The notes beneath the pieces are model-generated. The model saw nothing but the letters and a program-made list of their open reading frames with translations, searched no databases and was not told where the DNA came from. Positions 1 through 11,150 of a DNA stretch of 11,150 nucleotides are shown one piece after another; positions within the stretch are counted from its first letter, which is position 1; every line of letters starts with the position of its first letter. The position numbers and the translations under genes are program-made. The stretch is from a virus (lineage: Duplodnaviria > Heunggongvirae > Uroviricota > Caudoviricetes), in the IMG/VR virus record IMGVR_UViG_2558860288_000004, positions 1 through 11,150 of that record, one strand, 5' to 3'.

Positions 1-1203
1 GTGTTTCAGCAGGAAAAGCAGGCTCAGCGGCAGAAAGATTTTCAGCAGGCATACGCTAATGCTTATGCGTCTGGTGATCGCGGTGCTTTGCGTCAGTTGG
101 CTACTCAATATCCAGACCAGATTGAATCCGTTCGTAAAGGCATGGGATTCATTGATGAAGACCAGCGTAATTCTATCGGCACCTTAGCGGCTGGCGCACG
201 CCTTGCGTCATCGTCTCCAGAAGCAATGCAATCATGGCTGCAAAACAACGCCAAGGAACTGACTCGCGTCGGTGTTGACCCTAACAGCGTTGCTCAGATG
301 TATCAGCAGAACCCTTCAGGATTTGGTGAGTTTGTTGATCACCTTGGAATGGCTGCTCTTGGTCCGATTGATTACTTCAATGTTCAGGACAAGATGGCAG
401 GTCGTGAGATTGACCGAGGCAGGCTGGCAGAGACAATCCGCAGCAATCAGGCTGGCGAGGCGCTAACAGCACGAGGCCAGAACATCACGATGCGCGGTCA
501 GGACTTATCTGCTTCTACTGCGAGACGCGGGCAGGATTTGGCAATGCAGCGAGCGTCAACAAGAGGAACCGCTGGGAATGATGAGCGTACAGTTCAGTTA
601 TCAGATGGCAGAACTGTAACGGTAGGCGGGAAGCTTCATGGCGCTGGGGCTAATGCGTTCTACGAAGGCATCGACAACGAGGGGAATATGGTTCGCGTTC
701 CTGCCAGTTCAATCGCAGCGCCTGCAACATCGTCTGCATCAGCACAAAACTATGCCATGAAGAAGGATATCGACGCGATCGCAAATGCAGATGCTTCTGC
801 TCTCGATTTCATGACAGGAATGACCGGCGGTGCAGGTAATCCAGCAATTGGTGCTGATGTTCGCAGCAGATTAACAGGAAAAGAGCAGCGCCAGTTATAT
901 AACTCAGCACAACGGATTCAGGGCAGAATGCAGAATCAGGGTGTGGCGGCAGCAAGGGACATGGGTGCCAGTGGTATTAACACCGTTGCAGAAGCGAAGA
1001 TGTATTTTCAGGGGATGCCGCAGGTTGACTATTCAAGCCCGGAGGCTATGCAGCAGTCGATTCGTGAGATTCAGGAATACACCAACAATTACAATCAACA
1101 ATATAACGTTAATGTTGGTAAATCTCAGCGGCAGCAATCTCAACCTGCACAGGTATCACAGCCAGCAGCCAGCAGTAACTTTTCTTCACTATGGGGTGAT
1201 TAA
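1..1203 (+). CDS. Phage virion DNA-ejection (injection) protein, P22 gp20-like; 5'-partial, open to the window edge
   Basis: Reading frame is open from base 1 (the GTG at position 1 is not a demonstrated start) to TAA at 1201-1203. Ala/Gln/Gly-rich, no enzymatic motif. Sits immediately upstream of and translationally coupled (TAATG) to a 665-aa gp16-like protein, and upstream of mnt and tailspike, which matches the P22 order 7-20-16-immI-9. Product assignment is by position and composition, not by recognised motif. Confidence 0.5.
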
Positions 1204-3200
1204 TGGCTAAAGCATGGAAAGATGTTATCGCCTCTCCACAGTATCAGGCGTTAGCACCAGAACAAAAAGCGCAGGCTCAGGAGCAATACTTCAATGAAGT
1301 CGTGGCCCCGCAAGCCGGAGAAAATGCAGAGCAGGCTAAGCAAGCTTTCTATGCTGCCTATCCATTGCCATCTGTGCAGCCAGTGGAGACACAACAACCA
1401 GAAGCACAGCAACAACCACAGCAAACTGGATTTATGTCTGATCTTGGTGAAGCCGTGAAAGAAACTGGTCGCGGACTGGTGCAGGCTGGCGTAAACGTGG
1501 CAAACATACCTGCATCAGTTGCCGATGCTGTAACAAGCGCGGCGGCTTGGGCTGGCGGTAAACTCGGTATTGGCGATGGTACATATCAACCAGCGCCACG
1601 AGTAACAACGCAGGGGTTAGAGCAGGACTTTGGCCTTCAGCAAGGCGCGCTGACTCCACAAACGACAGAGGGCAGGGTATTTGCTGAAGCATTGCCTTAC
1701 CTCACTCCTGCTGGCGTTGAGAGAGCAGCAACACAGGCACCAACACTTGCTGGTCGAATTGCTCAGGGGGCAACACGACTTCTCGCAGAAAACGCAGTTG
1801 GATCACTTGCTGCAAATAGTGCGAAAGATGATGCGGAAGCACTCGCCACCGATTTAGGCGTTGGTGTGCTGGCTGGCGGTGCTATTAACGCTGCCGGACG
1901 TGGATTAGGTGCTGCTTATCGTGGCGTTCGTGGTGCTATTGCGCCAGAAGCGCAGCAGGCTATCAGATTTGCAGAGCGTGAAGGAGTTCCTCTGCACACC
2001 ACAGACCTGTTACAGCCTACTTCCCGCGTCGGGAAAATGGCGCAGACTACAGCAGAAAATATCCCCCTGGCTGGCACAAGCGGAATGAGAGCAACGCAAC
2101 AGGAAGCGAGAAGCCAGTTGGTGCAGAGATTTGCTGATAAATTCGGTGAGTATGATCCAGCTGTTGTTATTGACAGCCTTAAAGCGAAAACATCAGGAAT
2201 TCGTCGTGCCGCCGGTAATCGACTGGAGCAGGTTCAGAATGCTATGGCTGGAGTAAACATTCAGCCTGCGCGAGCAATTCAGCAGATTGATACAGAAATA
2301 TCTAATCTGCAGAAGCTTGGTAAGGTAGCTGATAACGAGACAATTTCAAAACTTCAGTCATATCGTGATGAGCTTGTTCGCAATGCTGGCCCTGATGGTC
2401 CGGTTAATCTGGATTTGAAGCAATTAAGCGATCTGCGCAGCCAGTTCAGAATGGACGTGAAGGGGGAGCGACCAGTGTTACCAAACCGTTCCGATGCCGC
2501 CATTCAACGTGTTTACAAGGCGATGACCGACGATATCAATGGTGCCATTGGTCAGAATCTTGGCAACGATACTCTCCGTAAATATCAGCAGGCCAATGCC
2601 GTCTACGCTGACGAAGCGGCGAAACTAAAGAATACCAGGCTGAAGAATGTTCTCATGAAAGGAGACCTGACGCCGGAAGTTGTCAACAACATGCTATTCA
2701 GCAAGAACAAATCGGAAATTAAGACGCTGTATAACTCAGTTGGTCGTGTTGGCAGGGCGCAAATGCGCAATGGCATCATTGGAAAGGCGATGGAGAAATC
2801 TGGCAGATCCCCTGACCAGTTCCTTCGGCAGCTTAACATCCTGCAAAACCAGACTGGCATCACATTTAAGGGGCAGGACGCTGCTTATCTGAAAGGATTA
2901 AAAAACTACCTGCAATCCACGCAGCAGGCTGCAAAAGCGGCAGTAACAACACCCACAGGGCAGCAAACTATCCCGTTCATTATTGGGTATGGGACGGCAA
3001 TGAACCCGGCGACAACTGGCGCAGCAGTAAGCTACGGACTTCTTACTCGCGCCTATGAGAGCGAGCCATTCAGAAATGCAATGCTCCGAATGGCAAACAC
3101 CCCACGCGGATCAACAGCGTTTGAGAAAGCCATGCAGCAGGCACAAAAGGCAATTAACGCTATGACGCAGGGGGCTAAGTCTGATGCGTTTTCAGAATAG
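1203..3200 (+). CDS. Phage virion DNA-ejection (injection) protein, P22 gp16-like
   Basis: 665-aa ORF; ATG at 1203 overlaps the upstream TAA by one base (TAATG) with GGGGTG upstream as a possible RBS. Ala/Gly/Gln-rich with a low-complexity stretch QQPEAQQQPQQ near the N-terminus. It is the last large structural gene before the mnt/tailspike region, as gp16 is in P22-like phages. Assignment rests on synteny and size. Confidence 0.55.
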   Translation: MAKAWKDVIASPQYQALAPEQKAQAQEQYFNEVVAPQAGENAEQAKQAFYAAYPLPSVQPVETQQPEAQQQPQQTGFMSDLGEAVKETGRGLVQAGVNVANIPASVADAVTSAAAWAGGKLGIGDGTYQPAPRVTTQGLEQDFGLQQGALTPQTTEGRVFAEALPYLTPAGVERAATQAPTLAGRIAQGATRLLAENAVGSLAANSAKDDAEALATDLGVGVLAGGAINAAGRGLGAAYRGVRGAIAPEAQQAIRFAEREGVPLHTTDLLQPTSRVGKMAQTTAENIPLAGTSGMRATQQEARSQLVQRFADKFGEYDPAVVIDSLKAKTSGIRRAAGNRLEQVQNAMAGVNIQPARAIQQIDTEISNLQKLGKVADNETISKLQSYRDELVRNAGPDGPVNLDLKQLSDLRSQFRMDVKGERPVLPNRSDAAIQRVYKAMTDDINGAIGQNLGNDTLRKYQQANAVYADEAAKLKNTRLKNVLMKGDLTPEVVNNMLFSKNKSEIKTLYNSVGRVGRAQMRNGIIGKAMEKSGRSPDQFLRQLNILQNQTGITFKGQDAAYLKGLKNYLQSTQQAAKAAVTTPTGQQTIPFIIGYGTAMNPATTGAAVSYGLLTRAYESEPFRNAMLRMANTPRGSTAFEKAMQQAQKAINAMTQGAKSDAFSE

Positions 3201-3289: not shown

Positions 3290-3550
3290 TTAGCTGCTGT
3301 CTTTTTTATATAGCTCCTTGAGCGTATCAAAGACAATTTTCTTAACCATATCAGATTGTTGTTCTGCCATACGCTCTGCATCGTCAATGTAAACAGATGC
3401 AGAGCTTTGTTTAGCCAATGATTCTTCAATCGCTGCAATTATCTCTGAGTTCAGCGACCTGTTATTCATCTTCGCACGCTGCTTAATTTTCGCGTGGAGT
3501 TCATGCGGAAGTCTCAAGTGAAACTGCGCCTCGTCGTATTTGCTGTACAT
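3290..3550 (-). CDS. mnt: Mnt-like ribbon-helix-helix transcriptional repressor (Arc/MetJ superfamily)
   Basis: Translation ...FHLRLPHELHAKIKQRAKMNNRSLNSEIIAAIEESLAK...YIDDAERMAEQQSDMVKKIVFDTLKELYKKDSS aligns along its length with P22 Mnt as I recall it (FNFRMPMEVREKLKFRAEANGRSMNSELLQIV...NDAERLADEQSELVKKMVFDTLKDLYKK). I chose the ATG at 3550 (MYSKYDEAQF..., 86 aa), which matches Mnt length; the ORF track extends the frame to 3583. Stop TAA at 3290-3292. Confidence 0.8.
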   Translation of the reverse strand: MYSKYDEAQFHLRLPHELHAKIKQRAKMNNRSLNSEIIAAIEESLAKQSSASVYIDDAERMAEQQSDMVKKIVFDTLKELYKKDSS

Positions 3551-3671
3551 CCTTGATGCCTCACCAGTTGGGTGGAATGGCATCGTAACCTACTGGATAA
3601 ATACTCAATAGTACCATTTCGGTATGCAATCACATCATGGTTGCATCATATCATTCGTCTGGAGCAATGAA
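3551..3671. promoter_or_regulatory. Divergent control region between mnt (minus strand) and tailspike (plus strand); holds the tailspike RBS and a short inverted repeat ATGCAA-N11-TTGCAT (3624-3646)
   Basis: 121-bp AT-rich intergenic region between divergent starts. GGAG at 3661-3664 lies 7 nt upstream of the tailspike ATG (3672). ATGCAA at 3624-3629 and its reverse complement TTGCAT at 3641-3646 form a 6-bp inverted repeat. No convincing sigma70 -35/-10 pair could be fixed by eye. Confidence 0.3.
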
Positions 3672-5828
3672 ATGTCAGATATCACCGCAAATGTTGTGGT
3701 CAGCATGCCTTCGCAACTCTTCACCATGGCTCATTCTTTTAAAGCCGTAGCCAATGGCAAAATTTATATCGGTAAAATTGACACTGACCCGGTAAATCCT
3801 GAAAACCAGATTCAGGTTTATGTGGAGAACGAAGACGGTTCTCACGTTCCTGTTTCGCAACCAATCATCATTAATGCGGCTGGTTACCCGGTATATAACG
3901 GACAGATTGCCAAGTTCGTAACTGTGCAAGGCCATTCGATGGCTGTTTATGATGCATACGGTGTGCAGCAGTTCTATTTTCCTAATGTGCTGAAGTATGA
4001 CCCGGATCAGTTTTCTGCAGAATGGCTTGCCAAGATGTCTGCGCCTGATTCTTATGCATTATTTGGTACATTCTCATCAATAGCAGATCTACGAGCATTT
4101 ACTGCATACTCATCAGTTAAGGAAAATGGAAGAGTCTATGTTGATTCTTATCACCTTGGAGCTGGTTATGGCGGAGGATATTTCCGCTGGAATTCAACTA
4201 GCACTGATACTGATGACGGTGGCTATACCATTAACCCAACTGGCAATACTGGAACAGGACGCTGGAAGCGAGAGATATCCTCTGCGTATGTCGCAAGGAC
4301 GGTGAGTCCGTTGGAGTTTGGGGCAAAAATTAACGATAGTACTTTCGACTGCGCGCCAGCTATCAATGCGGCTATTTTATATTTGAATCCTTATCTTGAT
4401 TCCTCATATGATTCTCATCAGGGTGGAGATATTGTGTTGCCAGCAGGGCAGTTTTATATTAATGACACTATATACGGCTCTCCCAATGTCAGGGTGCTGG
4501 GAATTGGCGGCACTCCAGGGTTCAGATATTCTAGGTCTGGGTGTTCTGTTATTGTCGCAATGCCCACAATGGATCTCATGAAAATTATGTATGATACCGC
4601 CCCGTGGTTGACAGACGGCACATCCAGATACACTAATACAAACGAGATGGTTTACGGCAGAACGGAAAGTCAGGGATACTATGGGACCTACATTGAGAAC
4701 ATAGTTTTTGTTGGAAATGCAGATCAACAGTGCGGAGTACGTATCTGGCGAGTTCCATGCTCCACTCTCAAAGGTGTTGCAGTCTACTCCTGTAAAGTAA
4801 GTTTCTGGGTAAATGGTTCGTGGGATGTGATGCTTGATAATTGCTTCTCATATGGCGCGAAGTACGCCACAATTTTGCCTTATCAAATTACATCGCTTCG
4901 CATAGTAGGCGGCTATTATACAGGAAATACTGCACAACTTTATTCTATGGGGACTGAACAGTGGTTTCATCGAGCGATAGATGAAACTAACAAGCCAAAC
5001 ATTGCTTATGTAACTACTTTCATGTATGCATATAACAGTTTTGATATAAATCTGTATGGCGTAACAATAGAAGGGTACAACAGAGAGTTTGCTCTTTTTT
5101 ATTGCGGCAATGTTAATATGTTTGGTGGGTATACAGAATGGATTGGAGTACCTGCAAGCGAGACAGGGCATCGTGTTTTTGTGCATGGTGTTGCCTCAGA
5201 GTTTTATTCAACAGGGACATACTTTAATCACGACATTAAAGATCTGGCGGTGCAGTCAGGGAATGTTTTTGACACTACTTCAGGAGAATACCTCCCATCT
5301 GAAAGATCACGAGTGATAATTGAAAATCCAAGAGTGGTAACAAAATTCCAGAATCTTACTAAAGATTTAGGATATGGCTCCTACAATATTGTCATAAAAA
5401 ACCAACACCCTATCACAGATAGCTTATCGACTACACTTTCAGCGCAGAGGCTTTTTACAGTTCAATTTGTTGGATTGCTAGACCAGTATACAATGCGAAC
5501 TCCTGCTGTAACTGCAAATGGTACAGTGAGCTTTAGTATCCAGATTGGAAATATTGCAGATGGAGGTGAGTATAGCGTTAGGCTTTTGATGAGAAACACC
5601 GCATCCACTGTACAGCAGGATTTAAGATTTACAGTGTTGGTAGGAACAACAACAACTGTTACTGGCTACCAGGGACGCTCGAAGGCTGGGACCACATTAA
5701 TACCAGCACCCACAGCAACATTCACTGGTAGCACATTAACTCTTACTTTCACAGGTAATTCAGGTTATTATTCATTCTTCAGAATGAAGTGCGTTCCTGT
5801 AGAAGATCAACCTATTTATACCTATTGA
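3672..5828 (+). CDS. Phage tailspike protein: P22 gp9-like N-terminal head-binding domain fused to a beta-helix-type receptor-binding (probable O-antigen depolymerase) body of unknown specificity
   Basis: From the ATG at 3672 (preceded by GGAG) the protein begins [59 protein letters not shown]...[15 protein letters not shown]...[10 protein letters not shown], a close match to the P22 gp9 head-binding domain. The remaining roughly 600 aa are Gly/Asn/Tyr/Ser/Thr-rich, as in right-handed beta-helix tailspike bodies, with a Thr-rich C-terminal segment. The 16 codons upstream in the ORF track (from 3624) are probably not translated. Stop TGA at 5826-5828. Confidence 0.9.
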
Positions 5829-5850
5829 TGGATTTTAGGCCGGGAAACCC

Positions 5851-5880
5851 CTGCCAATAGACTTTATTGGCAGGATTTTT
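5851..5880 (+). terminator. Rho-independent terminator hairpin downstream of the tailspike, shared with the convergent gtrC-like gene
   Basis: Perfect 9-bp stem CTGCCAATA (5851-5859) / TATTGGCAG (5865-5873) with a 5-nt loop, followed by GGATTTTTTAT on the plus strand. The stop codon of the minus-strand gtrC-like gene (TAA, 5864-5866) lies inside the hairpin. Confidence 0.6.
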
Positions 5881-7318
5881 TATCAAAATCAACAATCAAA
5901 ACGCTATCCTTGATATAGGAATTTAGCCATTGCCCCTGAAAGGATAGGTTACCTTCACATTTATGAGAAATGTAATTTTTAGCCTTGTTTGCTGGCATGT
6001 ATGTATTCTTTATCCCATTAAATGACATGTACGCACTTCCCCAATACCAGTTCCAGAAGTAATCTGTGACTGAATAGTTTATCAAAGGAAAGTTTAATGC
6101 TGCATTTTTTACAGCTTCGGATCTTGGTGCTGTGCCGGTAAACACAATGCTAACATTATCACTACCAGCGTCGCGAATGGATTGCATAATTTCAGAAAGA
6201 ACTACTTTATTTATCCTTTCCTGAGCCTTCAAAGCATTTCCGTATGCATACATTAAAATCATAGAATACAATACGGGTATTAATGTAATTGATGTTACGT
6301 ATCTATGTTCTTTAAAGCAATAATATAGCAATGTACTCATGAGGACATAAAAAACTCCAACCGACATGTATAAGTGAACTCCTCCCAATGGGTTGGCGAG
6401 AACCAGCAATGCCCCCATAGTCATTGGCATAGCGATTGCTGTTGCGAGTATCGCTCCAGTTATAACGTTAAATACTTTCCAGTTTAGGCCTTTACATTTA
6501 ACGTATTTGTAACTCAGAAACGCCGTCATAATAATGCAAGCTAAAGCTGACAGGAGTAATAATTCACCACCGATAACCCTGTAAAAATTTGTAGAAGCAA
6601 AATCGTAATACTTTAAGCTGTTATTCTTTAGTGCACCAAATATATCATTTGATATTCTTGGGTGATTAGATGAATAATGCCCGCTAAAAGTTATGGGTAA
6701 TATGAATTTCACGTATATCACACCACCTACTAAAACCTGCATTATACGTAATGCAACCCTTTTAAGTATTAACTGCGGGTCAGTAAATCTGGCCATGTTA
6801 ACTATTACTTCACATATTAATAAAATCGCAACGACATTAATGACTGCCTGATAAGTGCCAAGCACTATCACTACAAATGCGGTGCCTATTATTAATTCAT
6901 GAGCCAGTCTTTTGCACTTAATTGCAAAGAGAGCAAATGCAGATGCAATGGAGAAACTGAAAGTTAAAACATCAAACCGATAAGAGAACATTGATATAAT
7001 AGCTGGATTCGCCATGAATGCCAGAGGTATAATAAAGCTCCATTTTCCCCCATCAAGAAACCTCTTTCTGTAACATGCAAAAGATATTGCAAGCAGCACA
7101 GAAGCAAGAATGATTGGTAGAGGTGCAAGATCGACGATTCTGGAGCTAAGATTGAGAACTGACATTACTATATCAGCTACAGGCCTCCCGTCCACACCCC
7201 ATTTAGTATAACCAACAGTCGTTCGCCCAATATCATCAACATAAAATTGATTTGCTAGGATAATTGGCAATATAAATATAAAAATAACATACGAGTAACG
7301 TTTTGAGTTGTTAATCAT
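5864..7318 (-). CDS. Serotype/type-specific O-antigen glucosyltransferase of the Gtr family (GtrC/Gtr-type-like), polytopic inner-membrane protein
   Basis: 484-aa strongly hydrophobic multi-span protein lying directly after gtrA and gtrB; its start overlaps the gtrB stop (ATGATTAA). Position, size and membrane character match the third, type-specific gene of gtr clusters. It is markedly AT-rich compared with the ejection-protein genes. I do not recognise which Gtr type it is. Confidence 0.65.
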
Positions 7319-8237
7319 TTTTATTCTTACCCTTTAAAATATATCTTGGACGCTGTTTAACCTCGATATAAATCCTTCCGATGTATTCACCAAGTACCCC
7401 TATACCGATCAACTGAATCCCGCCCAAGAAAAGTATCGATACCAGCAGGGATGGATAACCTCTAACCGGGTTTCCAAACGCCAGAGTGTCCAGAATCATC
7501 CATGCGCCATATGTAAATGCTAAGCCAGCGACGAGAAGGCCGATGTAAGTCCACATACGTAGCGGAAAAGTCGAGAAGCTCGTAATTCCCTCAAGAGCAA
7601 GATTCCACAACTTCCATCCGTTGAACTTGGTACTGCCAGCAACACGTTCTGCGCGGGCATAATCAACGATATCAGTGCGACCACCAACCCAACTCAAAAC
7701 ACCCTTCATGAAAAGGTTGCGCTCAGGCATGAGCTTAATGTTTTCTACCACCTCGCGAGACATTAGCCTGAAATCTCCAACATTTTCCTCGATCTGCGGG
7801 TTGCTGATTTTGTTATGCAGCTTATAGAACCACTCGGCGGTTTTCCTCTTCAGTCTGCCATCCGTTGAGCGGTCAGATCGTTTAGCAAGCACCATATCAG
7901 CACCTGCCTGCCACTTTTCAATAAGATGAGGAATAACCTCAATCGGGTCTTGCAGGTCAACATCAATTGGGATTATAGCATCCCCAGTTGCATGGTCTAA
8001 CCCTGCAAACAATGCTGGTTCTTTACCAAAGTTGCGTGTAAATGACAGCGGAACAACTAGAGGATCTGAAACAGCCAGAGCATTAATAATTGACTCCGTA
8101 GCGTCTTTGCTGCCGTCATTTATGAAAACAATTTCCACTTCATATGACTTCAATTCTTCGAATTCACGTACCGTTTTATAAAAAATTGGTATCGCTTCTT
8201 CTTCATTGAAGACAGGAACGACCAGAGATATCTTCAT
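7311..8237 (-). CDS. gtrB: Bactoprenol (undecaprenyl-phosphate) glucosyltransferase GtrB, GT2 family
   Basis: 308 aa beginning [26 protein letters not shown]..., the typical GT-A N-terminus, with a DxD-type motif ([10 protein letters not shown]) and C-terminal transmembrane helices. Start ATG overlaps the gtrA stop (ATGA). Matches my recollection of GtrB/YfdH. Confidence 0.9.
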
Positions 8238-8596
8238 TTCGCATCCCTAAAGACAATGAACTTTGAATAGACGAAACCGCACACCAGGCTGATGGCGGAG
8301 AAGGTGACAAGAGTGACAATTGGAGGAAGTGAACATCTATCAGCAGCCCATCCAACAGTAGCACTCAGTGTTCCCATGAACCCGACATATAACATGTAGC
8401 GCATCGTTGTAGTTGATGCTTTGAATGTGAATTTTGCATTCGCGAAGAAGCTAAAACTCACAGCCACAACAAAACCTGCGAAGTTTGCCAGAGCCTGATT
8501 GGTATGCGCGGCATAGATACATACACCAAAAACCACCCAGTGTATAAGGGTGTTCAGCACGCCAATAGAGGTGTACTTTGCAAATAGTTTTAACAT
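8234..8596 (-). CDS. gtrA: GtrA family flippase for bactoprenol-linked glucose (4-TM small membrane protein)
   Basis: 120 aa, [31 protein letters not shown]..., the characteristic GtrA size and sequence; first gene of the gtr operon, immediately downstream of int on the same strand. Confidence 0.9.
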
Positions 8597-8690
8597 TTCT
8601 TCTATCAGCTAATAATCAAAGGCATGAAGTCTATCATCCAAGTCTCAATCGATCGATACTTGCTGTGGTTGATGAGACAACACTGAGACA

Positions 8691-8724
8691 CACAAAGCTT
8701 TGCACTGGATTGCAAGGCTTTGTG
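8691..8724 (-). promoter_or_regulatory. Long imperfect inverted repeat between the int stop and the gtrA start: candidate int terminator hairpin and/or gtr operator
   Basis: CACAAAGCTTTGCAC (8691-8705) and TTGCAAGGCTTTGTG (8710-8724) can pair as a roughly 14-bp stem with one mismatch and a short loop. The first arm itself contains the perfect palindrome CAAAGCTTTG (8693-8702). It lies about 25 nt downstream of the int stop and about 95-130 nt upstream of the gtrA ATG. No clean U-tract follows on the minus strand. Confidence 0.35.
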
Positions 8725-8748
8725 CTATCCGATGGTGTTTAAGTTTCC

Positions 8749-9906
8749 TCACTCCACCTTTTCATCAATCCAGTCCGCCCACCACTGCATCATTTCTCTG
8801 CGCTTATCGAGATACTGAGCATGGTTGTAAATTCCACGTACAGATCCGCCGTTGGCATGTGCCAGTTGCACTTCAATAGCATCAGCAGGCCATTCGTGCT
8901 CGTTCATAATCGTGCTGAATTCATGCCTGAATCCGTGACCGCTTTCCAGACCTTCATAGCCGATTTGTTTGATCACAAGCAATACCGCGTTCTCGCAGAT
9001 TGGCTTCTTCTTATCGTTGCGCCCGGCAAAAACAAACTCTGAGACTGGTTTGGTGATTGAGCTTAGCGTAGTGAGAAGTTCAACTACCTGGTCTGACATA
9101 GGAACCACATGAATTTTGCGTCCCTTCATCACATTGGCGTCGATGGTGATAATCCTGTTTTCAAAATCGACGTTCTTCCATAGCATGGAACGAAGCTCTT
9201 TTGTCCTGAGGGCTGTGTAGCGTAAAACTTTGGTCGCAATGAGCGATACGATGCTTCCTGAAAATGTTGCCAGTGCTTTGTTAAATGCCGGGATCTGGTC
9301 TGCAGGAAGAAACGGGAAGTTTTTCTTGCGGTATCCCTTCATGGCGTCAGCAAGGTCAGGTGCCGGGTTATATTTAGCCCTACCAGTGACAATAGCGTAA
9401 CGGAAAACCTCGCCGCATCTTCTGCGGGCTTTATTTGCTCGCTCCATTGCACCGCGATCTTCAAATCTGCGGATTACTTCCAGCAGTTGCATCGGCTCAA
9501 TATCCTGAATTTCAAGGCCGCCGATGATAGGTAAAATGTCGTCATCAAACATTTTTGCAAGTTCAGTCGCATAGCCTACTGACCAGACTTGCTTCTTGTG
9601 CTCGTACCATTCCTTGTAAATCGCACTAAAGGAATTGTTGTTAGACGAGGCCTTTTTCGCTTTTACCGGATCGATGCCAACCGAGATGTCTTTCCTCGCA
9701 GTCCATGCTTTATCCCTTGCCTCCTGCAAAGTCATAAGCGGATATTTTCCGACGGTCAGGATTTTCTCCTTACCGTCAATCTTGTAGCGAAGCTGCCAGA
9801 CCTTTTTCCCTGATACAGGGACATAAAGGTACAGGCCATTACCATCGAGAAGGCGGTATGGTTTTTCTTTCGGCTTTGCTGCTTCAATCTGCTTAACGGT
9901 GAGCAT
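8749..9906 (-). CDS. intS: Tyrosine site-specific recombinase (phage integrase, P4-like family), argW-associated
   Basis: N-terminus from the ATG at 9906, MLTVKQIEAAKPKEKPYRLLDGNGLYLYVPVSGKKVWQLRYKIDGKEK, is the canonical P4-family arm-binding start. C-terminal catalytic region has RTKELRSM ... HGFRHEFST ... VRGIYNHAQY (Arg/His-x-x-Arg/Tyr signature). The resulting 385 aa, adjacent to argW, matches my recollection of E. coli IntS. The ORF track's longer frame (GTG at 9942) adds 12 residues I consider unlikely. Stop TGA at 8749-8751. Confidence 0.85.
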   Translation of the reverse strand: MLTVKQIEAAKPKEKPYRLLDGNGLYLYVPVSGKKVWQLRYKIDGKEKILTVGKYPLMTLQEARDKAWTARKDISVGIDPVKAKKASSNNNSFSAIYKEWYEHKKQVWSVGYATELAKMFDDDILPIIGGLEIQDIEPMQLLEVIRRFEDRGAMERANKARRRCGEVFRYAIVTGRAKYNPAPDLADAMKGYRKKNFPFLPADQIPAFNKALATFSGSIVSLIATKVLRYTALRTKELRSMLWKNVDFENRIITIDANVMKGRKIHVVPMSDQVVELLTTLSSITKPVSEFVFAGRNDKKKPICENAVLLVIKQIGYEGLESGHGFRHEFSTIMNEHEWPADAIEVQLAHANGGSVRGIYNHAQYLDKRREMMQWWADWIDEKVE

Positions 9907-10002
9907 GGGTAAAAATCCGGTGGGTAAAATTATTTTATCCACTTTTTACCCGTCATGGAGTGCGGCTGTCAACGATCTGACGCGAACCATGACGAACCGT
10001 GA
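9907..10002. repeat. Cluster of short repeats in the int upstream region: GGGTAAAA x2 direct (9907-9914, 9922-9929) plus one inverted copy TTTTACCC (9945-9952), and tandem CGAACC(A/G)TGA x2 (9983-10002); candidate integrase arm-type or accessory-factor sites
   Basis: Read directly from the sequence. They lie between the int start and the tRNA 3' end, where P-arm binding sites are expected in tRNA-integrating phages. No functional evidence. Confidence 0.3.
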
Positions 10003-10067: not shown

Positions 10068-10100
10068 TGGTGTCCCCTGCAGGAATCGAACCTGCAATTA
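10068..10100. other. Probable prophage attachment-site core (attL or attR) overlapping the 3' part of argW; exact extent not determinable from this window
   Basis: Inference from architecture: the integrase gene abuts the 3' end of the tRNA, as is usual for tRNA-integrating phages, where the phage supplies the 3' segment of the tRNA. The second copy of the core must lie outside the window, so the boundaries cannot be set. Confidence 0.35.
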
Positions 10101-10142
10101 GCCCTTAGGAGGGGCTCGTTATATCCATTTAACTAAGAGGAC
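10068..10142 (-). tRNA. argW: tRNA-Arg (anticodon CCU)
   Basis: Reverse complement of 10068-10142 reads GTCCTCTTAGTTAAATGGATATAACGAGCCCCTCCTAAGGGCTAATTGCAGGTTCGATTCCTGCAGGGGACACCA. It has a 7-bp acceptor stem (GTCCTCT/AGGGGAC), anticodon stem AGCCC/GGGCT with loop CTCCTAA (anticodon CCT), T-loop GGTTCGATTCC and an encoded CCA 3' end. Matches my recollection of E. coli argW. Confidence 0.95.
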
Positions 10143-10217: not shown

Positions 10218-11150
10218 TTATGCCGGGTTTTTATAATTTTTCTTAATGTTTTCCGCACGTTCTGCTTTTTGGCGTGCTTCTGCTTTACGCTTATTGCTCA
10301 TGTCGTTACGAATCTGTGCATGACTCATTAACGCGAAGATAAAGGTGCCGCCGCAGATGTTCCCCGCTAAAGTAGGTAGTGCGAAGGGCCAGATGAAATC
10401 GCTCCAGTGCAGCGTACCGTTAAACACCAGATAGAGGATTTCAACAGAACCGACCACGATATGGGTGGTGTCACCCAGGGCAATAAGCCAGGTCATCAAT
10501 ATAATCACCACAATCTTTGCCGCACCCGCTGCAGGAAACATCCAAACCATAGTGGCGATCAGCCAGCCGGAAATGATCGCGTTGGCAAACATCTCGCTGG
10601 GGGTGTTCTTCATCACATCCATGCCGATTTTGACAAATGCATCGCGAGTTTCTTCATTGAAGATAGGCATATATTCAAATGCCCACGCCGCAATACCTGT
10701 CCCGAGAATATTACCCAGCAGCACGACGCCCCATAACCGTATAAGTAAGCCGACGTTGCTCATTGTCGGTTTTTGCATGACGGGTAGTACCGCAGTCACG
10801 GTATTTTCGGTAAATAATTGCTGGCGGGCCATAATGACGATAATAAAACCAAAGGTATAACCGAGATTCTCCAGCAAGAAGCTGCCCGGCACACCTTCCA
10901 GTTCGACTTGAAATATCCCTTTTGCCAGTAACGAAGCGCCCATCGACAGACCCGCCGCAATGGCTGACCACAGTAGCGCCATTGCGTCGCGTTCCAGCTC
11001 TTTTTCACCATCCTGGCGGATATGCTCATGAATTGCCATCGCCCGGGAGGGGAGTCGGTCTTCATCTATTTCTATTTTTTTGCCGCGCTCTTTTTCTTCG
11101 CTCTCAACTTCAATTTCGTCGCTGTGTTGATCAATTTTGTCGTTGTCCAT
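10218..11150 (-). CDS. yfdC: Host inner-membrane protein of the formate/nitrite transporter (FNT) family, YfdC-like
   Basis: 310-aa ORF whose ATG is the last three bases of the window (11148-11150) and whose stop is TAA at 10218-10220. It has an acidic N-terminal tail and multiple hydrophobic helices, and sits next to argW on the side away from the prophage, matching my recollection of the E. coli K-12 yfdC-argW arrangement. Composition is chromosome-like, not AT-rich like the gtrC-like gene. Confidence 0.75.
   Translation of the reverse strand: MDNDKIDQHSDEIEVESEEKERGKKIEIDEDRLPSRAMAIHEHIRQDGEKELERDAMALLWSAIAAGLSMGASLLAKGIFQVELEGVPGSFLLENLGYTFGFIIVIMARQQLFTENTVTAVLPVMQKPTMSNVGLLIRLWGVVLLGNILGTGIAAWAFEYMPIFNEETRDAFVKIGMDVMKNTPSEMFANAIISGWLIATMVWMFPAAGAAKIVVIILMTWLIALGDTTHIVVGSVEILYLVFNGTLHWSDFIWPFALPTLAGNICGGTFIFALMSHAQIRNDMSNKRKAEARQKAERAENIKKNYKNPA

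Follow-up and report, generated by a model that had tools for sequence, protein, structure and literature searches.

The first 11,150 nucleotides of the IMG/VR virus record IMGVR_UViG_2558860288_000004 (the whole stretch analyzed here, referred to below as the window) contain a tailspike gene (positions 3672..5828, plus strand, 718 amino acids) and, convergent with it, a candidate gtrC gene (5864..7318, minus strand, 484 amino acids); the coordinates given for both genes in the initial annotation proved correct. Our analysis indicates, with a probability that we put at roughly 0.7, that the window covers the right, integrase-proximal end of a P22-like prophage (of Lederbergvirus type) integrated at argW in Escherichia coli, and that most of this phage has been deleted. 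The host and the prophage type were assigned because the P22-type gene order and the argW layout are as in annotated E. coli genomes and P22. The P22-type right arm is colinear across the window, as judged from the listing of open reading frames and Pfam matches, and annotated E. coli genomes have the identical argW layout with yfdG/yfdH, intS, yfdC and mlaA. Within this element, the tailspike body and gtrC are, by their homology breakpoints, one replaced AT-rich cassette (window positions 4014..7310).

A lookup with the exact tailspike sequence retrieved 24 contigs (six displayed places and 18 resembling the first). In all 24, evgA, emrK, emrY, dsdA and a shortened dsdX (377 amino acids) are found immediately upstream of a 400-amino-acid fragment of the gp20 ejection protein. 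The window is 99.98% identical to contigs L045 and L047, with 2 mismatches in 11,150 nucleotides, and starts exactly at the internal GTG that is taken as the gp20 start in the truncated copies. Homology to an intact prophage starts 145 nucleotides upstream of window position 1, at about gp20 codon 14. When a 601-nucleotide probe spanning the junction was searched, it divided cleanly into a dsdX part (100% identity) and a part matching “phage DNA ejection protein”; the dsdX-gp20 junction was found in no complete RefSeq E. coli genome. A complete gene set for an inducible P22-like prophage is missing from the 99.98%-identical sister contigs. From these near-identical contigs and from the start of the window at the internal GTG, we infer with high confidence that the window tailspike sits in a defective remnant of roughly 10 kb without head, lysis, replication and immunity genes. 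Since this remnant is fused to a truncated dsdX, no virion could be made from it, and the tailspike therefore could not currently define phage binding. The earlier proposal that the tailspike and the Gtr protein define what “the phage” binds thus does not hold, given the deletion remnant in each of the 24 contigs with the exact tailspike.

In L045, the deletion junction lies at about 6183-6186, where a 5′-truncated dsdX is fused to about gp20 codon 14, and the deletion that formed the remnant took dsdC, attL, part of dsdX and roughly 30 kb of prophage. Contigs L046 and L048 have lost window positions 7693-8711 (the 3′ end of gtrB and gtrA), gtrB is split in L047 (10381-11307), and in an O74:H39 strain the tailspike is in two pieces, split at about residue 250 (P0006 and P0003). 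Judging by such sequences, the sister copies of the remnant are still decaying. In E. coli NZ_CP195498.1 (1455631-1455934), dsdX abuts a gene for a “packaged DNA stabilization gp4 family protein”, which suggests that a P22-like prophage at this locus was reduced by a separate deletion.

The borders of the cassette were defined by comparison with two E. coli argW prophages used as comparison records (L001 and L002). Blastn revealed homology at 96-97% identity over positions 1-4012/4013, which resumed at position 7311 or 7363 and extended to 11150 at about 94% identity. Since DNA homology stops at 4013 and returns at 7311-7363, the replaced block comprises exactly the body and gtrC. Megablast with positions 3600-7400 as the query, run on 5,426 complete E. 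coli genomes and on 50,697 phage records, matched only the first 411-418 nucleotides, to window positions 4010-4017. Blastn in its distant mode likewise gave zero matches for positions 4030-7300 in these complete E. coli genomes, and megablast and distant blastn of the cassette found there only the head-binding domain and the gtrB end. The module exchange that the initial annotation had placed at the VLKYDPDQF hinge (residues 106-114, nucleotides 3987-4013) is borne out by the stop of DNA homology at 4012-4017, and the separately acquired cassette that it had suspected is apparent as one block, 4014-7310, with flanks 94-97% identical to E. coli argW prophages. Its remark on AT-richness also holds: the GC content is 0.421 in the body and 0.366 in gtrC versus 0.51 in the gp20 and gp16 genes. 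Values of about 0.44 were also found in gtrA, gtrB, the mnt-like gene and the head-binding part of the tailspike gene.

The gap between the tailspike gene and gtrC is 35 nucleotides. A terminator scan and inspection of the sequence located an intrinsic-terminator hairpin with an 11-bp stem and a 3-nucleotide loop, followed by ATTTTTTAT, at 5850..5874 (plus strand). The T-run is present on the tailspike strand only, the minus-strand side being without a U-run, and the gtrC stop codon (5864-5866) sits within the 3′ arm. By these features, the hairpin is the terminator of the tailspike gene and overlaps the gtrC stop. The terminator supposed to be shared by the two genes is thus indeed a single hairpin between convergent genes, but its T-run serves the tailspike side only and the gtrC stop codon lies in its 3′ arm. 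The hairpin as a conserved, shared part of the cassette was ruled out, since the hairpins that related loci carry in this position are non-homologous and the T-run is one-sided.

Comparison with L005 (also retrieved as L015), a viral contig of 40.8 kb from IMG/VR, revealed a second, nested exchange. This contig has intact gp7 and gp20 genes (gp20 of 431 amino acids), and its GtrC and GtrB are, respectively, 100% and 99% identical to those of the window. About 290 of the 298 differences between the two tailspike genes fall into positions 4199..5051 (plus strand), a block of about 850 bp with sharp edges and about 34% nucleotide divergence that codes for residues about 176-460, the central β-helix. 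Outside this block there are 0-1 differences per 60 nucleotides, except for 8 in the first 18 nucleotides of the tailspike gene. Because the flanks are near-identical and GtrC is 100% identical, the alignment argues that the central β-helix was swapped by recombination, independently of the flanks and of gtrC. Both alleles occur in E. coli assemblies at NCBI, as proteins of the WP_023568368.1 type (allele A) and of the WP_061356608.1 / WP_435391863.1 type (allele B), and the identity of either central segment to the other homologues found does not exceed about 74%. Over residues 115-175, identity is 97-98% to two other relatives with the head-binding-type N-terminus (P0061 and P0072), 66-82% to three more, and 30-54% to relatives with other adaptors. 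Within-family exchanges evidently join downstream of the classical hinge, as far as can be read from these alignments.

The ATG of the tailspike gene at 3672 is preceded by a GGAG Shine-Dalgarno sequence 8 nucleotides upstream. A collection of 5.8 billion proteins contains the 718-amino-acid form, and the 734-amino-acid form starting at 3624 is absent there. Residues 1-114 (3672..4013, plus strand) constitute a P22/Sf6-type head-binding domain. The Pfam profile PF09008 (Head_binding) is covered in full by residues 1-113 with an E value of 9.8e-66, in agreement with the P22 gp9-like domain proposed initially. In a search of PDB sequences, Sf6 gp14 (7sg7) matched residues 1-129 with an E value of 5.9e-65, and the P22 tailspike matched the head-binding domain with an E value of 1.3e-50. 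The alignments to the Sf6 and P22 tailspikes end at residues 121-129; the body is therefore unlike that of P22, as had been noted. At the DNA level, the head-binding part is 95-97% identical in 1,142 E. coli genomes, with the identity stopping at about 4013, and 86-94% identical to phages Sf6, Sf101, IME10 and HK620.

The receptor-binding body (residues 115-718, 604 amino acids; 4014..5828, plus strand) is predicted to fold into a right-handed parallel β-helix with a C-terminal β-sandwich. The β-helix anticipated from the sequence is therefore what structure prediction yields. The model resembles O-antigen and capsule depolymerase tailspikes; its top Foldseek matches are capsule depolymerases for Klebsiella K2 and Acinetobacter, together with WceF, which cleaves stewartan. 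WceF is also the sole sequence-level match in PDB that extends into the body (E value of 1e-19, residues 7-281). Since the structural matches are so distant, the substrate of the body is not readable from them. A local Pfam search of the body gave only a sub-threshold match to Pect-lyase_RHGA_epim (17.5 bits versus a cutoff of 27), and PF27114 was seen on the body in precomputed annotations only. Six acidic residues (E215, D226, D253, D308, E467 and E489) are invariant in the body and may be considered as candidates for an endoglycosidase or deacetylase activity.

In the protein collection, the 90% cluster of the body has 25 members, all from E. coli, and the next relatives are 44-70% identical. 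In most of these, the TSP1/Gp66 N-terminal domain (PF18668) replaces the P22 head-binding domain, and in some the N-terminus is that of a T7 tail fibre; Yersinia kristensenii and Mixta calida are among the sources named. No homologue of the body was found in the 50,697 phage records by DNA search and tblastn, the best matches being stretches of 100-165 residues at the start of the β-helix with 30-38% identity. A scan of genome contigs with the body alignment yielded 55 pattern matches, none of which was confirmed as a relative. One homologue, 62% identical in the body, is encoded on a T7-like lytic phage contig (L009, 5368-7818) behind an N-terminus with Phage_T7_tail and Tail_spike_N domains; its neighbours are genes for an internal virion protein and the large terminase, and conversion genes are absent. 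The receptor-binding body family is common to three phage architectures.

The 484-amino-acid protein matches PF14264 (Glucos_trans_II) with 77.7 bits (cutoff 30; E value of 1.1e-21), residues 19-326 aligning to profile positions 3-317 of 317. Alignment with the P22 GtrC gives 26% identity over 446 residues (E value of 6e-44). The two proteins have in common an N-terminal YVDDIGR...WGVDGRP block, in which D28, D29 and R32 are invariant in 17 GtrC homologues and also conserved in P22 GtrC. Hydropathy analysis revealed at least nine hydrophobic segments, and an AlphaFold2 model (predicted local distance difference test score of 84.5) has about 11 long helices and a C-terminal α/β domain. These predictions indicate a polytopic membrane protein with about 9-11 membrane helices. 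The protein is thus a candidate type-specific O-antigen glucosyltransferase; its earlier description as a polytopic, divergent type-specific Gtr protein agrees with the PF14264 score, the identity to P22 GtrC and the predicted helices. Beyond its own cluster, the nearest relatives have 41-58% identity to it, and matches in phage records reach 27% identity at most. Its sequence had no match in PDB, and a Foldseek search of the model against PDB returned nothing at an E value of 0.001 or better.

The gene is the third in a gtrA-gtrB-gtrC operon, with all genes on the minus strand, stop and start codons overlapping, and the whole adjoining intS. The gtrB stop overlaps the gtrC start by 8 nucleotides (ATGATTAA), which suggests that the translation of the two genes is coupled. 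A phase-variable gtr operon is said, after Broadbent et al. in 2010, to be recognizable by paired GATC sites upstream of gtrA. Since the int-gtrA spacer (window 8597-8748) has one GATC and that of P22 has four, the window operon probably lacks the signature of Dam-dependent phase variation. The existence of a Dam/OxyR signature in many gtr operons is cited in PMC4413052.

We next consider whether the type of body and the type of GtrC go together. In all four independent loci in which GtrC is at least 49% identical to that of the window, a body homologue (62-87% identical) is carried alongside. With GtrC identities of 45% or less, none of about 28 loci (non-duplicate loci by our own count) has a body homologue; instead, they have unrelated tailspikes, a short stretch of 32-39% identity, or myovirus tail fibres. 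A Fisher-type calculation by hand gives about 3e-5 for this linkage, a value that ignores the relatedness of the loci and is indicative only. Two of the loci with close GtrC proteins (L003 and L004) belong to prophages of the siphovirus type that have a tape-measure gene and use Tail_spike_N as the adaptor; their bodies, 62-69% identical, are followed by a convergent gtrCBA with GtrC 49-53% identical; another, from Enterobacter cancerogenus (L011), has GtrC of 53% and a body of 62% identity. As far as these sequences go, the pairing is not obligatory: a close GtrC implies the body family, and the reverse fails. The simplest reading is that the GtrC clade is specialized for O-antigens bound by the body family, which itself spans more receptors and modification chemistries. 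In one P22-like prophage (L008, 5132-7024), whose tailspike body is 65% identical, a 630-amino-acid AT3 plus SGNH O-acyltransferase (OafA/Oac-like) fills the gtrABC slot. In Leclercia sp. (L012, 7599-9228), a GtrC relative of 45% identity adjoins myovirus-type tail-fibre and baseplate genes; the GtrC clade is therefore also present on contractile-tailed prophages.

The two variable genes would have served the ancestral phage as a receptor pair. The trimeric tailspike would dock to the tail via residues 1-114, and the β-helix body would bind, and probably cleave, one particular O-antigen repeat. After lysogeny, GtrB would make undecaprenyl-phosphate-glucose, GtrA would flip it to the periplasm, and the type-specific GtrC would add glucose to the O-antigen that the tailspike recognizes; these glucosylation steps follow from homology to P22 gtrABC and from the Shigella flexneri model (PMC7685785). 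By analogy with BTP1 and Hf4s, the modification may then block adsorption via the cognate tailspike, prevent superinfection by phages with this receptor and shield the O-antigen of the lysogen from its own tailspike. Recombination would have brought in the body and gtrC together, as a single cassette joined at the YDPDQF hinge and at the gtrB/gtrC overlap, and a second, later exchange would have replaced the central β-helix alone. Deletion would then have left the lineage with about 10 kb, made up of gp20′, gp16, mnt, tailspike, gtrCBA and intS. In the present genome, the intact gtrABC may still modify the O-antigen, and the tailspike gene, its open reading frame intact, would be stranded with no virion to join and serve at most as a recombination reservoir. 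The gene identities, predicted folds, junctions, remnant context and co-occurrence statistics in this scheme rest on data; the O-antigen as substrate, glucose as the sugar, enzymatic cleavage and superinfection exclusion are inferred from the known systems.

Several observations weigh against this scheme. No characterized homologue fixes the substrate, and the nearest solved structures to the body are 10-17% identical and mix capsule and exopolysaccharide depolymerases with O-antigen enzymes. The Foldseek matches of GtrC to GT-C proteins are weak (EmbC, probability 0.72; EmbB, 0.69; STT3, 0.51; ALG3, 0.38; all with E values above 0.09). Bodies of 56-67% identity adjoin GtrC proteins of 23-27% identity (L006, L007 and L010), an acyltransferase, or no conversion genes at all (L009). 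The serogroup labels are inconsistent, O74:H39 for the strain with the split window-type tailspike versus O112 for a strain with GtrC one residue different. The deletion junction lies 145 nucleotides outside the window, so that the remnant status is deduced from near-identical contigs and from the start of the window at the internal GTG. As to the O-serogroup of the host, O74:H39 and O112 were the only source names found, and we claim no specificity.

It appears very unlikely to us that the module is part of a P22-like temperate phage that is still intact and inducible, with the tailspike setting its current host range, which is the picture implicit in the initial annotation. Every open reading frame of the window is intact, a near-identical cassette with the other central allele is present in the 40.8-kb contig with intact gp7 and gp20, and the window does not include the deletion junction, as an intact phage would allow; these points are outweighed by the dsdX′::gp20′ fusion in 24 of 24 exact-tailspike contigs, by the difference of only 2 in 11,150 nucleotides between the window and the fused contigs, and by the start of the window at the internal GTG called as start in the truncated copies. 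Alternatively, the adjacency of the two genes might be architectural only, the tailspike being the last late gene and conversion genes lying by int, with both exchanged independently and no functional matching. We regard this as unlikely, though it is a reasonable rival with several points in its favor. The convergent layout of gtrABC and the tailspike gene is seen in nearly all loci regardless of the types involved, the body family also pairs with GtrC proteins of 23-27% identity and with an AT3-SGNH acyltransferase, the central β-helix was exchanged with gtrC untouched, and the intergenic hairpins of related loci are non-homologous. An architectural origin fits poorly, however, with the 4/4 versus 0/roughly 28 distribution of the body family beside close (at least 49%) and distant GtrC proteins, with a linkage that spans podovirus and siphovirus backbones and several genera, and with the location of both window genes between a single pair of breakpoints.

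The body could also target a capsule or exopolysaccharide rather than the O-antigen and would then have no substrate in common with GtrC. The Klebsiella K2, Acinetobacter and WceF depolymerases at the top of the Foldseek matches, and WceF as the only PDB sequence match into the body, point in this direction; we nevertheless hold such a target to be distinctly improbable. At the other extreme, the body and the GtrC clade may be functionally matched (“bind it, then mask it”) and travel together as one cassette between unrelated morphotypes, namely P22-like podoviruses and siphovirus-type prophages of several Enterobacterales genera, with the 850-bp swap beside an unchanged GtrC representing an escape by which one allele was retargeted to the GtrC-glucosylated O-antigen, a form unusable for the other allele. 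This is, in our judgment, improbable as a whole; if true, the stranded gene of the remnant would be a preserved record of an arms race and a possible recombination donor in it.

The remaining genes of the window follow the P22-type order. A 5′-truncated gene for a gp20-like ejection protein occupies positions 1..1203 (plus strand; a 400-amino-acid frame from the internal GTG); its product matches PF16928 (Inj_translocase) with an E value of 5e-52 and covers profile positions 54-217 only. It is followed by a gene for a gp16-like ejection protein (1203..3200, plus strand, 665 amino acids) that shares 97-99% identity with what is annotated in L001 and L002 as a “lytic transglycosylase domain-containing protein”; PF26808 (Phage_P22_gp16) is annotated on the identical gene of L045. 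A Mnt/Arc-like ribbon-helix-helix repressor gene (3290..3583, minus strand; Pfam Arc, E value of 1e-14; Repressor_Mnt, 3e-14) is an open reading frame of 97 amino acids in the window and is called as 86 amino acids in related records. It stands isolated between gp16 and the tailspike gene and, in contrast to the P22 immI region, is not accompanied by an ant gene. Beyond gtrC are gtrB for the bactoprenol-phosphate glucosyltransferase (7311..8237, minus strand, 308 amino acids; PF00535, E value of 3e-31; 90-92% identity to yfdH of L001 and L002) and gtrA for a putative undecaprenyl-phosphate-glucose flippase (8234..8596, minus strand, 120 amino acids; PF04138, E value of 1.8e-13), the exact sequence of which is present on at least 1,000 contigs. 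The intS-type tyrosine integrase gene (8749..9942, minus strand) has Phage_integrase, Phage_int_M and Arm-DNA-bind_3 matches in Pfam and is 99% identical to IntS of L001 and L002. The attachment site argW, a tRNA-Arg (CCU) gene, was located at 10068..10142 (minus strand) by ARAGORN and the Rfam tRNA model, and an Rfam scan of the window returned nothing else; the chromosomal yfdC (10218-11150) follows from the annotation of L001 and L002. An 8-bp inverted repeat, CACAAAGC ... GCTTTGTG, is present at about 8690-8725 (minus strand), directly downstream of the intS stop; the int-gtrA spacer of P22 retains most of its 3′ arm and of the stretch between the arms, and part of its 5′ arm. The repeat may be a terminator or a site connected with Int/att.

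The range of O-serotypes open to attack by a phage depends on its tailspike body, and the change that a lysogen makes to its surface antigen depends on GtrC. The pairing of a tailspike with O-antigen glucosylation is itself already known and is textbook material for P22-like phages; what is new here is the type of body, the type of GtrC, the mapped junctions of the cassette, the pair of central-β-helix alleles and the survival of the cassette in a dsdX-fused remnant. The novelty expected initially is upheld in that no characterized phage/serotype pair matching the two proteins was found among the phage records and the complete E. coli genomes, but not as regards the sequences, both of which are already NCBI entries as unnamed, uncharacterized E. 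coli proteins (on 30 contigs for the tailspike and 57 for GtrC). The value of the find is incremental, because the pairing is textbook and the window copy is a decaying remnant. Still, uncharacterized types are a starting point for serotype-specific phage reagents and for tracing the origin of glucose side-branches that are unassigned in E. coli O-antigens; among the E. coli O units that bear a Glc side-branch, about half have no transferase gene in the O-antigen cluster (PMC7685785). The window and L005 alleles, which differ only in the central β-helix, provide a ready natural specificity experiment.

Modularity of tailspikes across genera has been documented (PMC10408124). The Kuttervirus CBA120 TSP1 (PDB 4oj5) and related depolymerases are 10% identical to the window body; their adaptor differs and the substrates are not comparable. 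In P22, int, gtrA, gtrB, gtrC and a convergent gene 9 have the same order and orientation as in the window, with an arc/mnt-type gene beyond; the head-binding domains are homologous, and its GtrC belongs to the same Pfam family and has the DD motif. P22 differs in its tailspike body, unrelated in sequence past about residue 120, in its GtrC (26% identical) and in its integration site, and the window element is a remnant. For Hf4s, a P22-like phage of E. coli, the O-antigen is the receptor, and its lysogens are seroconverted. Like the window element, Hf4s, Kapi1, Sf6 and Sf101 (Lederbergvirus-type podoviruses with an O-antigen receptor) have a seroconversion locus between the tailspike gene and int, and the argW attachment site is common to the window, Kapi1, Sf6 and HK620. 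The records of Hf4s, Kapi1, Sf6 and Sf101 contain neither the window tailspike body nor its GtrC, and Sf6 and Sf101 use O-acetyltransferases.

CPS-53/KplE1 of strain K-12 (intS-yfdG-yfdH-yfdI) has the same argW site by yfdC, an intS-type integrase and yfdG/yfdH homologues of gtrA/gtrB; we take it, from the K-12 map, to be a defective remnant between argW and the dsd genes. Compared with CPS-53/KplE1, the window remnant keeps gp20′, gp16, mnt and a full-length tailspike gene, its gtrC differs, and dsdC and part of dsdX are deleted. In BTP1, GtrC shields the lysogen O-antigen against the tailspike that the prophage itself encodes, and superinfection is blocked by it as well (PMC4413052). Among phage records, no BTP1-like match to the window GtrC exceeded 27% identity, and the BTP1 protein is, according to the same paper, independent of GtrA and GtrB, whereas the window has a classical PF14264 GtrC in an intact gtrABC operon. 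With an adjacent tailspike and gtrC acting on one O-antigen, BTP1 is the best functional model for the window pair.

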